18,184 nucleotides of DNA from Myxacorys almedinensis A (GTDB taxonomy: Bacteria; Cyanobacteriota; Cyanobacteriia; Leptolyngbyales; Leptolyngbyaceae). Below the pieces are notes generated by a model. It had not been told where the DNA came from and did not search any database. It saw only the letters and a program-made list of their open reading frames with translations. The stretch's first letter is position 1; the number at the start of each line of letters is the position of its first letter. The stretch is taken from positions 39,802-57,985 of the forward strand of contig NZ_WVIE01000002.1 in the NCBI RefSeq assembly GCF_010091945.1, written 5' to 3'. Position numbers and translations under genes: made by a program. Below are positions 16,364 through 18,184 of the stretch, piece after piece.

Positions 16364-16741
16364 ATGGTGGAACCAATATCATTTACTGCTGCTGCGATCG
16401 CAACCTTGGTTTTTAGTGAAACGTTTAAAGAAGTTGGTAAAACGTTGGGGAAAGGAACGCTAGACGCGGGTGGAAGATTGGCAAAACTGCTGTGGGAGAA
16501 GCGACCCGGCGCAGCAAAAGCACTTGAGGCGGGTGAAGAAACGCCAGAGTATCGGGATGCGATCGTAGAAGTCGAGACGTTAGCAAAAACCGACTCAGAT
16601 ATTGCAGCAGCCATTCAAGCTGTGATGCAAGCGATGCAGGCTCAACCGCAAGGGCAGCAGATCGTTAACTCATTCGTGCACAAAGCGGCGAATGTGTACA
16701 ATGCGCCCGTCACAATTGGGAAGCAAGAAATCAATTTTTGA
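16364..16741 (+). CDS. A 125-aa helical protein or module of unknown function. It is probably the N-terminal (effector-position) domain of the downstream NB-ARC/TPR protein, cut off by one in-frame TGA.
   Basis: The track ORF 16361..16741 starts at GTG. ATG 16364 has GGAG (16355-16358) 5 nt upstream. The sequence is MVEPISFTAAAIATLVFSETFKEVGKTLGKGTLDAGGRLAKLLWEKRPGAAKALEAGEETPEYRDAIVEVETLAKTDSDIAAAIQAVMQAMQAQPQGQQIVNSFVHKAANVYNAPVTIGKQEINF, ending at TGA 16739-16741. It is in the same frame as the open reading frame that begins at 16742. Confidence 0.65.
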   Translation: MVEPISFTAAAIATLVFSETFKEVGKTLGKGTLDAGGRLAKLLWEKRPGAAKALEAGEETPEYRDAIVEVETLAKTDSDIAAAIQAVMQAMQAQPQGQQIVNSFVHKAANVYNAPVTIGKQEINF

Positions 16742-18184
16742 CTGAAGCCGTCGGCATCCGGCTCCGACAAAGTACCGCCGTTATATGAAATTCCTGCGAT
16801 CGCGTCTCCCAATTTTGTAGGACGCACAGACGAACTTGTTCAACTGCATCAATTTCTCACGTCGTCGGAAGGTGCGGTGATTTCTGCCGTTGCTGGAATG
16901 GGGGGCGTGGGTAAAACGCAGTTAGCGGTGCAGTATGCGACTCGACATAAGGCAGATTATCCCGGCGGCATCTATTGGCTGAATGCGCGATCGGGGGATT
17001 TAGCGACTCAAATTATTCTCAAGGCAGAATTCGATCTGAAATTAGCGGGATTGGAGGCAGCGAAAGAGCGATACTCGAATCTGGATGAGTTGGTGGGGTG
17101 GTGTTGGCGGCATTGGTTGTCGGATGGCATCACGCTGGTGGTGTTGGATGATGTGGTCGAGTGGGCGAAGTGTCGATCGTATTGCCCAAAAGAGGCTCGG
17201 TTTCGGGTGCTGGTGACAACGCGCCAACAAAATTTACTGCCAAACTTTCCGACGATCGCGCTGGAGGTGTTGCAACCGGAAGAGGCGCGATCGCTGCTGG
17301 CAACGTTAGAGCAACAGGGACGAGTCGCCAACGATCCAGACACCGCAGACCAACTGTGTAAGGGACTGGGCTATTTGCCGTTAGGAATTGAACTCGTTGG
17401 AACCTATTTAGCGAAAGACCGACACCTGACGCTCTCGCAAATGGTGGAACGATTGCAGCAAAAAGGAATGCAAGATTCGGCACTGGAGCGATCGCCGCAG
17501 TATGAAATAACCGCCGAGTTGGGCGTGAAAGCGGCGTTTATGCTGACGTGGGAAATGTTGGATGCAGGTGAACAACAGGTTGCCCGATTGCTGAGTTACT
17601 TCGCGCTCGATTGGATTGAGTGGGATCTGGCGGAAGCGATGATGCAGCGTGTGGAAGGAGAGGCGTATTCGCTAGGAGAACTGAAGGCACGGTTGGAGAA
17701 TGCGTCGCTGGTGCAGATTGAAAAGGATGCTCCTTGGGTGTGTCGATTGCATCCGTTGATTCGGCAGTTTTTGCAAGAACAGGAAGCGGAGGCGGTTAAA
17801 ACCGCAGATGAAGCACCGTTACGATCGGCGTTTGTGTCGGTGATGATAGCGATCGCAAGTCAAATGCCAGATAACCCACCAACGGAGCGAATTGAGCGGT
17901 TTTCGGGGGTACGATCGCATGTTCAAGAAGTAGCAGAGTGCTACACAGAAGGATTGGAAGGAAGTGATCTGACATGGACGTTTATCGGACTAGCACGATT
18001 TTGTGCAGGACAGGCGCTCTTTACTGAAGCGGAATATTGGTATGCGGAATGTTTGAGAGTGACGCAACGGCTGTATGAAGGCGACCACCCGACTGTGGCA
18101 ATGAGCTTGAACAACTTAGCAAGTCTCTATGATTCACAAGGACGCTACAGCGAGGCAGAACCGTTGTACGAGCAAGCGTTGGCG
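16742..18184 (+). CDS. NB-ARC (STAND/NLR-like) P-loop ATPase with C-terminal TPR repeats. It is 3'-truncated by the window edge. It is open from the codon after the TGA at 16739-16741, with no ATG/GTG/TTG before GTG 16877. It is either a readthrough continuation of, or a disrupted fusion with, ORF 16364..16741.
   Basis: This ORF is missing from the track because it is open at the right edge. My translation shows these motifs:
- LKPSASGSDKVPPLYEIPAIASPNFVGRTDELVQLHQFLTSSEGAVISAVAGMGGVGKTQLAVQYA, with Walker A GMGGVGKT at 16895-16918.
- ITLVVLDDV, Walker B at 17135-17155.
- RVLVTTR.
- GYLPLGIELVG, GLPL-like.
- CRLHPLIRQFL, MHD-like.
- LNNLASLYDSQGRYSEAEPLYEQALA, kinesin-light-chain-type TPR.

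There are 481 codons with no stop. Confidence 0.85.
   Translation, partial: MKPSASGSDKVPPLYEIPAIASPNFVGRTDELVQLHQFLTSSEGAVISAVAGMGGVGKTQLAVQYATRHKADYPGGIYWLNARSGDLATQIILKAEFDLKLAGLEAAKERYSNLDELVGWCWRHWLSDGITLVVLDDVVEWAKCRSYCPKEARFRVLVTTRQQNLLPNFPTIALEVLQPEEARSLLATLEQQGRVANDPDTADQLCKGLGYLPLGIELVGTYLAKDRHLTLSQMVERLQQKGMQDSALERSPQYEITAELGVKAAFMLTWEMLDAGEQQVARLLSYFALDWIEWDLAEAMMQRVEGEAYSLGELKARLENASLVQIEKDAPWVCRLHPLIRQFLQEQEAEAVKTADEAPLRSAFVSVMIAIASQMPDNPPTERIERFSGVRSHVQEVAECYTEGLEGSDLTWTFIGLARFCAGQALFTEAEYWYAECLRVTQRLYEGDHPTVAMSLNNLASLYDSQGRYSEAEPLYEQALA

Follow-up and report, generated by a model that had tools for sequence, protein, structure and literature searches.

The window analysed here is the whole stretch of 18,184 nucleotides (nt) at positions 39,802 to 57,985 of the forward strand of contig NZ_WVIE01000002.1 from the cyanobacterium Myxacorys almedinensis A. 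Near its 3′ end a short open reading frame (ORF), ORF1, is separated by a single in-frame UGA from an NLR-like NB-ARC/TPR frame, and comparison of this junction across related loci suggests that the UGA is a programmed readthrough site. ORF1 begins at ATG 16364 on the forward strand, runs for 125 codons and ends with GKQEINF-TGA at 16739-16741. The same frame continues from 16742 (LKPSASGSDKVPPLYEIPAIASPNFVGRTDEL...) and stays open for 481 codons, up to the window edge. The earliest ATG, GTG or TTG beyond the TGA is GTG 16877, six codons ahead of the P-loop GMGGVGKT (16895-16918); it is preceded by GGAAGG at 16867-16872, which resembles a Shine-Dalgarno (SD) site, and a public gene call on identical DNA opens the ATPase at this GTG. 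No promoter-like or terminator-like site was found between ORF1 and the ATPase frame. These coordinates agree with those of an earlier reading of the same DNA made from its letters alone (the sequence-only reading), which had taken the two frames for one unit composed of an N-terminal module, NB-ARC and TPR; the comparative data given below support that view.

A Pfam profile search, recommended by the sequence-only reading for the fused translation, found NB-ARC (PF00931; 60.6 bits against a cut-off of 23.5, E = 1.9e-16) at residues 30-246 of the post-stop frame, followed at the window edge by TPR_12 (61.1 bits, cut-off 30.1) and TPR_10 (53.1 bits); relatives carry many more repeats. The Walker A (GMGGVGKT) and Walker B (LVVLDDV) motifs are invariant in relatives. 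The earlier objection that a start at GTG 16877 would cost the protein its FVGR motif was borne out, the motif being encoded at 16814-16825, and since the NB-ARC match begins at 16829 the first 16 residues of that domain would be lost as well.

ORF1 starts M-V-E-P-ISFTAAAIATLVF, and its N-terminal helix (MVEPISFTAAAIATLVF...) is hydrophobic. Searches of ORF1 with Pfam, NCBIfam and PADLOC gave no meaningful match. The ORF1 family profile covers about 120 clusters at 90% identity, 72-199 amino acids long and all from filamentous cyanobacteria; against a 50% library it retrieved 1469 representatives, mostly of 100-180 amino acids. The N-terminal helix of family members is hydrophobic, with an acidic residue at position 2-3; a helical bundle and a variable tail rich in N, Q, G and V are likewise shared, and one member carries the UniRef label SesA-type NLR N-terminal domain. 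The AlphaFold model of ORF1 is an all-helical bundle (predicted local distance difference test score, pLDDT, 71.6) in which residues 112-125 are disordered (pLDDT <50), and a Foldseek search with this model against the PDB returned nothing below E = 1.

The Bell domain and its C-terminal amyloid signalling motif (BASS) were described by Dyrka et al. 2020 (bioRxiv 10.1101/2020.01.06.895854). ORF1 has the features of such a domain: it is helical, its length lies within the usual range of about 120-140 amino acids, its N-terminal helix is hydrophobic, position 2-3 is acidic, and in the window as in 41 other loci it is followed by a collinear NLR-like neighbour in a multicellular prokaryote. Several family tails are identical to motifs that canonical pairs carry twice, at the C-terminus of the Bell protein and at the N-terminus of the NLR; such motif-sharing pairs of the ORF1 family with NLRs are L073, L014 and L015 (L-numbers denote collected loci, P-numbers database proteins). 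No second copy of the window-type tail was found; it stands only at ORF1 ends, once per locus, and the motif of about 25 amino acids that in a BASS pair is carried by the Bell protein at its C-terminus and by the neighbouring NLR at its N-terminus is thus not duplicated in the window. A single tail copy could serve both proteins, and the locus may act like a BASS pair without falling under the definition. As the PDB fold search gave nothing, ORF1 is called a Bell-like module with an amyloid-motif-like tail on the grounds of its profile family, sequence features and context. The sequence-only reading had recognised a helical N-terminal module; the likeness to Bell-type death domains, the amyloid-motif-like tail and the spread of the module as a cassette go beyond it.

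In the protein database, the entries for the four closest NB-ARC homologues each have an abrupt start close to the P-loop. Their contigs carry a short ORF1-like gene, an in-frame TGA and a frame that runs through *L[KQG]SSAPGSD[QK]VTPLY[DE]IP...FVGR (asterisk, stop). Scans anchored on the NB-ARC side added nine loci when one genome per species was used (Myxacorys, Leptolyngbya, Stenomitos, Elainellaceae, Aerosakkonema and Synechococcales) and at least 23 further loci from metagenomes. Sampling from the ORF1 side added Kalymmatonema NIES-4073, the Leptolyngbya boryana group and a 6.7-Mb scaffold, and two more loci came from a model of the RNA element described below and from a mistranslated database entry. 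At least 42 readthrough-type loci were thus collected, in a metagenome sample that is not exhaustive and may include near-duplicate lineages; they extend from Leptolyngbyales to Nostocales and include strains of the NIES culture collection. In each, a Bell-like module that ends in an amyloid-motif-like tail is followed by an in-frame stop, past which the frame stays open into a sensor. As a control, the Bell profile was run over every ORF of the fetched loci, which yielded 21 ordinary pairs, each with a receptor that starts at an ATG of its own.

The stop codon is TGA in 41 of the 42 loci and TAG in the other (L097). It is followed by C at position +4 in 39/42, so that the UGA-C context pointed out by the sequence-only reading proved to be a conserved one, and the next codon is CTG, CTA or CTC in 39/42. 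Among the 21 canonical Bell-then-NLR pairs the stops are TGA in three, TAA in nine and TAG in nine, with frames relative to the P-loop distributed at random (8/6/7 pairs); the TGA preference of the recoded class differs from theirs with a Fisher p of 9e-12. The arrangement is old, since NB-ARC identity to the window falls to 41% among loci that keep the stop. The stop is also kept as faithfully as the frame, as a search of 5.8 billion proteins returned no homologue in which the window-type module is fused. Alignment of orthologous loci had been proposed as a way to find a sense codon at this position in a single long gene; it returned the stop in all 42 loci, and sense codons only in L012 (TAT) and L141 (GAG).

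Purifying selection acts on both sides of the stop. Downstream ORFs are intact over 553-885 codons in loci with enough sequence, and the ratio of non-synonymous to synonymous differences per site (pN/pS) is 0.29-0.34. FVGR is invariant, and pN/pS is 0.49-0.60 in the 15 codons ahead of it (codons 14-28 past the stop), a sign of coding constraint. The linker between stop and FVGR is free of stops in all loci but L013. In two loci (L058:2472-2531 and L069:870-929) a 1-nt insertion in the pseudoknot loop described below is offset by a 1-nt deletion 30 nt further on; about eight linker codons are shifted (ERERAKLNPP to ERGTGKVKSP), and both the RNA sequence and the frame from UGA to NB-ARC are kept.

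In the 40 nt directly past the stop conservation is of a different kind, with synonymous change suppressed. Synonymous-codon identity is 0.80 in codons 1-15 past the stop versus 0.49 in codons 26-100, and pS is 0.18-0.26 in codons 1-13 versus 0.63-0.74 in NB-ARC. With pS this low and pN/pS about 1 in the same codons, the constraint is therefore on the nucleotides, not on the peptide. An alignment of 39 junctions yielded an H-type pseudoknot of 5 + 4 base pairs (bp) that opens 8 nt past the UGA; it was scored on the same sequences from which it was derived, an overlap that slid controls and a tree address. Over both stems 96.6% of cells are paired versus 79% in shuffles, and none of 500 shuffles did as well. 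Stem 1 is paired in 99.5% of cells (pair types UA/CG and CG/GC/UA/UG/GU) and stem 2 in 92.9% (GC/CG/GU/AU/UA and AU/CG). Cells changed on both sides number 57 versus 21 in shuffles, and when the partner strand is slid by 1-3 nt pairing drops to only 27-51%. The stem 1 pair between alignment columns 19 and 35 switched between UA and CG at least four independent times on the NB-ARC tree, so the covariation is not one inherited event. Several of the double changes consist of a pair of non-synonymous substitutions (Pro...Val/Ala versus Ser...Thr) within a linker that is disordered, and for these it is hard to see a cause other than base pairing. In loop 3, alignment columns 38-43 are at least 90% conserved over the 39 loci.

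A covariance model of the element scored 55.8-81.3 bits at all training junctions except L101, where a 3-codon deletion leaves 33.9 bits. Over 0.8 Mb of loci its sole other match with E <1 was L107 (19.7 bits, E = 0.1). The model found the new junctions L008b and L129 and also scored the ORF1-anchored loci L134, L136, L137 and L140. Two hairpins had been offered by the sequence-only reading: GTCGG 16750-16754 with CCGAC 16764-16768 is stem 1 of the covarying pseudoknot, and the other, 16746-16750 with 16759-16763, is incompatible with either covarying stem and could not form in the distant group. RNAalifold proposed, together with stem 2, a weak hairpin containing the stop codon, which was dropped for want of conservation in distant relatives. 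Viral contigs were scanned for exact patterns of both versions of the RNA element and gave no match. The features of the window locus are listed in Table 1.

Table 1. Features of the ORF1-sensor junction, in window coordinates.
Feature	Position	Strand	Remarks
ORF1, Bell-like helical module	16364..16738	+	125 amino acids, protein WP_162421555.1, Myxacorys almedinensis A
ORF1 C-terminal tail QPQGQQIVNSFVHKAANVYNAPVTIGKQEINF	16646..16738	+	about residues 95-125; BASS position of Bell proteins
Conserved in-frame UGA, proposed readthrough site	16739..16741	+	TGA in 41/42 loci
Spacer CUGAAGCC, 8 nt	16742..16749	+	+4 C and +5 U conserved; Leu CUG/CUA is the first codon
Pseudoknot stem 1, 5′ strand GUCGG	16750..16754	+	pairs with 16764-16768
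Pseudoknot stem 2, 5′ strand CGGC	16759..16762	+	inside stem 1 loop; pairs with 16777-16780
Pseudoknot stem 1, 3′ strand CCGAC	16764..16768	+	pairs with 16750-16754
Pseudoknot loop 3 AAAGUACC, A-rich	16769..16776	+	unpaired yet nearly invariant
Pseudoknot stem 2, 3′ strand GCCG	16777..16780	+	pairs with 16759-16762
Linker codons from stop to FVGR LKPSASGSDKVPPLYEIPAIASPN	16742..16813	+	translated only if the stop is passed
FVGR motif ahead of NB-ARC core	16814..16825	+	invariant; upstream of the window's first canonical start
NB-ARC domain	16829..17479	+	PF00931; P-loop 16895-16918; Walker B LVVLDDV 17135-17155
GTG, start chosen by automatic gene callers	16877..16879	+	not conserved as start codon
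TPR sensor region, beginning	17978..18184	+	runs off the window edge

The module, UGA and pseudoknot recur together as a cassette joined to at least three kinds of sensor, always in frame. NB-ARC-TPR is the partner in most cases; NACHT NTPases follow the cassette in L136 (Leptolyngbya boryana group) and in L008b, where the NTPase has a tail rich in transmembrane (TM) segments, and a Ser/Thr protein kinase (Pkinase) follows it in L137. Leptolyngbya sp. FACHB-321 (L008) has two cassettes in tandem (L008:971-3600 and L008:3581-6650). The first consists of a Bell-like ORF at 971-1438, TGA CTG and an RNA element at 1433-1490, in frame with a NACHT domain (GEPGSGKT) that has a long glycine/leucine-rich transmembrane-like tail; the second is a Bell-UGA-NB-ARC-TPR unit of the window type.

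Two natural derivatives have a sense codon in place of the stop; in both, the linker belongs to an ordinary protein and the RNA element has degenerated. L012 has TAT at the stop position, its Bell domain is deleted and the element scores 28.7 bits. In L141:1501-2682 (P0170) the codon is GAG, followed by a decayed copy of the linker (13 bits), and the product is a Bell-motif-linker-TM-GUN4 protein. Stop-free fusions of the order Bell-motif-NB-ARC-TPR occur in L091, L113, P0200 and P0230, so the fusion architecture is viable. The Bell module and motif are also joined to a TM segment and GUN4 in P0201 and P0202, and other long family members have TIR-like or CHAT-like C-terminal regions.

The conserved junction is probably a site of programmed UGA readthrough, by which one recoded gene would give an abundant free effector and a rare effector-sensor fusion. 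The evidence thus favours the last of the three explanations listed in the sequence-only reading, a leaky stop that would yield much free N-terminal module and little full-length NLR. Most ribosomes would terminate at UGA 16739-16741 and release the 125-residue Bell-type protein, a putative membrane-attacking effector, and a minority would decode the UGA by a near-cognate tRNA, most likely that for Trp, and go on in frame to make the NB-ARC/TPR fusion. In bacterial readthrough tRNA-Trp is the usual reader of UGA. The weak UGA-C(U) context and the small H-type pseudoknot would together favour readthrough; as the knot begins 8 nt past the stop, it would stand at the ribosomal mRNA entrance when the UGA is in the A site. 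Frameshifting by +1 or -1 at UUU-UGA was considered and discarded, as the alternative frames meet stops almost at once.

By this proposed readthrough, one DNA copy of the signalling motif would serve both partners of an NLR/amyloid death pathway. Triggering of the TPR sensor would lead NB-ARC to oligomerise and so cluster the N-terminal motifs and Bell domains; the clustered motifs could then nucleate conversion of the free effector pool, leading to membrane damage and cell death. The fungal HET-S/NWD2 system is the paradigm of amyloid NLR signalling. We consider it rather likely, with somewhat less assurance than for readthrough as such, that death domain, amyloid motif, UGA and pseudoknot form a portable cassette that supplies an executioner in free and sensor-tethered form at a fixed low ratio. 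It would be a speculative and rather improbable addition that the level of readthrough reports the state of termination, for example the activity of release factor 2 (RF2) in phage infection or stress.

Several observations speak against programmed readthrough or limit its reach. Readthrough itself, its efficiency, the residue inserted, amyloid templating and cell death are all inferred, and stimulation of readthrough by a pseudoknot has, to our knowledge, not been seen before on bacterial ribosomes with RF2. The loci were partly chosen for an open frame, which makes the frame statistic partly circular; six loci were found independently of frame (L008b, L129, L134, L136, L137 and L140), and six out of six are in frame. 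Codons 1-13 past the stop have no coding signature of their own. L094 has a GTG immediately past the stop. The knot, with its 5 + 4 bp, is small; single-sequence folding of the 62 nt past the stop was no better than that of shuffles, and RNAalifold unaided did not recover stem 1. Finally, additional in-frame stops are present at L013:4055-4057, where CGA has become TGA in the linker of Cyanobacteria bacterium FACHB-63, and at L002:5740-5742, a TAG inside ORF1 on a long contig from ENA; these may be decaying copies or assembly errors.

An unlikely alternative is that two separate proteins are made, with termination at the UGA and synthesis of the sensor by reinitiation or from an internal start that is non-canonical or not conserved; the pseudoknot would then be a coupling or tethering element, or a repressor. 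Canonical Bell/NLR pairs are indeed tightly coupled two-gene units (Dyrka et al. 2020), gene callers place the start of the ATPase downstream, and the GTG of L094 would fit such a scheme. However, no start codon conserved at any position was found across the loci. A canonical start ahead of FVGR is present in only 10 of the first 37 loci collected, at scattered positions, and in the window, L006 and L007 there is none before the P-loop region, so that FVGR and the residues preceding it are conserved upstream of the first possible start. The sequence-only reading had allowed for an independent, clipped ATPase starting at GTG 16877 behind the SD-like GGAAGG; this site is present in the window and can be counted in favour of two proteins, but neither it nor the GTG is conserved. 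Reinitiation directly at the CUG past the stop was also rejected, since many loci have CUA or CUC there and others GAG or AAG, codons that are not usable as starts. Moreover, reinitiation needs neither a kept frame nor a stop-free linker, yet both are kept, the only linker stop being that of L013, and the frameshifts of L058 and L069 are compensated.

It is very improbable that the UGA is decoded by dedicated machinery, either as selenocysteine (Sec) with the help of a Sec insertion sequence (SECIS) hairpin or by a specialised suppressor tRNA. The strong preference for UGA (41/42) and the conserved stem-loop just 3′ of it do match the general bacterial Sec layout, but published surveys report no Sec trait in Cyanobacteria and Rfam, searched at a permissive threshold, found no match at the junction. 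G never occupies either of the first two positions of the apical loop, which starts with C, A or U, and SelB needs free loop Gs, but the conserved ones here pair within stem 2. L097 uses UAG with an intact element, the natural sense replacements are Tyr (L012) and Glu (L141) and not Cys, and the site lies in an interdomain linker rather than at a redox centre. No tRNA gene was found in the window.

That the stop is an accident, in a decaying pseudogene or through an assembly error, and that the sensor is no longer made, is close to untenable. A lone in-frame stop in one genome does resemble a nonsense mutation, and L002 and L013 carry additional stops. Recent nonsense mutation and sequencing or assembly error had accordingly been the other two explanations of the sequence-only reading; both fail on the finding that the same stop stands at the same position in 42 loci from independent isolates, metagenome-assembled genomes and metagenomes, the work of different assembling groups, and at NB-ARC identities as low as 41%, with downstream ORFs that are intact and under purifying selection, a covarying RNA element beside the stop and no fused window-type homologue among the 5.8 billion proteins searched. 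Reassignment of UGA to a sense codon can practically be dismissed, as the one public gene call with Trp at the site (P0210, L140:488-1648) is an artefact of the caller's translation table on DNA that has TGA, and the genetic code is standard, given that TGA ends 4/14 other well-supported window genes, including a Pfam-supported ketoacyl synthase and a polyketide-cyclase.

P0210 was for the same reason rejected as a natural Trp replacement; entries of this kind, presumably translated with a table in which TGA is Trp, could mislead searches for natural sense variants. In three Bell-then-NLR pairs without the RNA element (L078:276-806, L079 and L081) a receptor ATG lies 2-3 codons past the effector stop and in frame, the stop being TGA CTA in L078 and TAA in L079 and L081. 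Such pairs may stand midway between the recoded and two-gene arrangements.

In their protein parts the loci resemble the Bell/BASS-NLR pairs of Dyrka et al. 2020 (bioRxiv 10.1101/2020.01.06.895854): a helical module of 120-150 amino acids with a hydrophobic N-terminal helix, an acidic position 2-3 and an N/Q/G/V-rich C-terminal tail is followed, in filamentous cyanobacterial hosts, by a collinear and immediately adjacent NB-ARC/TPR or NACHT receptor. Unlike in those pairs, the receptor has neither a start codon nor a motif copy of its own, and an in-frame UGA and a pseudoknot take the place of the intergenic junction. The published screen demanded a matching motif at the annotated NLR N-terminus and for that reason would miss recoded loci; stop codons or readthrough are not mentioned in that study. 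More generally, surveys of NLR N-terminal domains and of Bell/BASS pairs systematically miss the class because automatic annotation splits the genes and cuts the sensors short at arbitrary codons inside them. The parts of the protein are thus known, and what is new is their combination with a covarying pseudoknot of readthrough type that, in bacterial chromosomal genes, replaces the gene junction of a two-component immune system.

UGA-C, UGA-CUA and an 8-nt spacer with a pseudoknot are established readthrough signals elsewhere (PMC7026636). The closest parallel is murine leukaemia virus gag-pol, in which a stop, an 8-nt spacer of conserved sequence and a compact H-type pseudoknot give much of a short product and, in a fixed ratio to it, a little of a fusion extended at its C-terminus (PMC7026636); for the present loci such a ratio is predicted. 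The components of a signal of this type are all found here, namely a conserved stop, a selected in-frame ORF, a spacer of about 8 nt and a covarying H-type pseudoknot. In contrast to the viral case, the stop is UGA and not UAG, it would be read by a bacterial ribosome with RF2 in place of eRF1, the knot is smaller (5 + 4 bp), and the element, whose function is putative, belongs to a cellular, chromosomal gene family. Coat/A1 readthrough in coliphage Qbeta and leaky UGA-C termination in bacteria offer a second parallel, in that a near-cognate tRNA decodes UGA at a few per cent to give a minor extended protein, and C at +4 is the leakiest context (PMC7026636). In these cases and in the UGA-CUA contexts of viruses and mammals, context acts alone, whereas the present loci have a covarying 3′ structure and a sensor extension of 80-100 kDa.

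Bacterial SECIS elements likewise pair an in-frame UGA with a conserved stem-loop just downstream; here neither the spacing nor the features of the loop agree with such an element, the loop takes part in a pseudoknot, and a UAG variant and Tyr and Glu replacements occur. Among immune receptors, the predicted readthrough product has the architecture of all-in-one NLRs, such as Bell-NB-ARC-TPR fusions and the coiled-coil NLR resistosomes of plants (ZAR1). In these the effector exists only within the receptor, whereas at the recoded loci most of the effector would be free, combining the one-component and two-component designs. Chromosomal recoding in bacteria that sets a product ratio (dnaX tau/gamma) or senses the RF2 level (prfB) is comparable in purpose; those genes shift frame by -1 and +1, respectively, and the present loci stay in frame.

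Programmed readthrough of stop codons is well known from RNA viruses and some eukaryotic genes. For cellular genes of bacteria, a review lists essentially one old example (PMC7026636), and searches of the open-access literature found no earlier account of readthrough at Bell/NLR loci or in cyanobacteria. If the proposal is correct, these loci would be the first case of pseudoknot-stimulated programmed stop-codon readthrough in bacterial chromosomal genes, and would represent a new wiring of NLR/amyloid immunity in which a single motif copy serves both partners. They would also provide a natural bacterial stimulator of readthrough to dissect on 70S ribosomes with RF2. The arrangement suggests how an NLR and its executioner could keep a safe stoichiometry while using the same signalling motif, and it shows that effector modules travel between sensors as a cassette with its own recoding signal. 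Leptolyngbya boryana, whose group carries the cassette, is genetically tractable.

Mobile and defence-related genes lie near several of the collected cassettes. The kinase cassette of L137 (650-5953) is directly downstream of an apparent diversity-generating retroelement with genes for bAvd, a reverse transcriptase (RVT_1) and an FGE-sulfatase-fold protein. On the chromosome of Kalymmatonema NIES-4073, an IS605 OrfB/TnpB gene (Cas12f-like; L134:2491-3246) closely precedes the cassette. Several other loci (L003, L141) are bordered by toxin-antitoxin and HNH genes, as would be expected of a defence island.

Elsewhere the window shows the usual content of a cyanobacterial chromosome, with psbD/psbC, ycf4 and cobalamin genes. 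Two of its ORFs, 587-1960 (forward strand, 457 amino acids) and 1980-3110 (reverse strand, 376 amino acids), have no Pfam match. HIP1 palindromes (GCGATCGC) occur at 39 sites in the 18-kb window, several of them within the NLR, which is typical of the host genome; the two at 16394 and 16796 noted in the sequence-only reading are present, but they say little about how long the locus has been resident. On the reverse strand, psbD (6431-7489) and psbC (5065-6525) overlap by about 95 nt, the classical psbDC overlap, and the true psbC start is probably downstream of the first ATG of the listed ORF.

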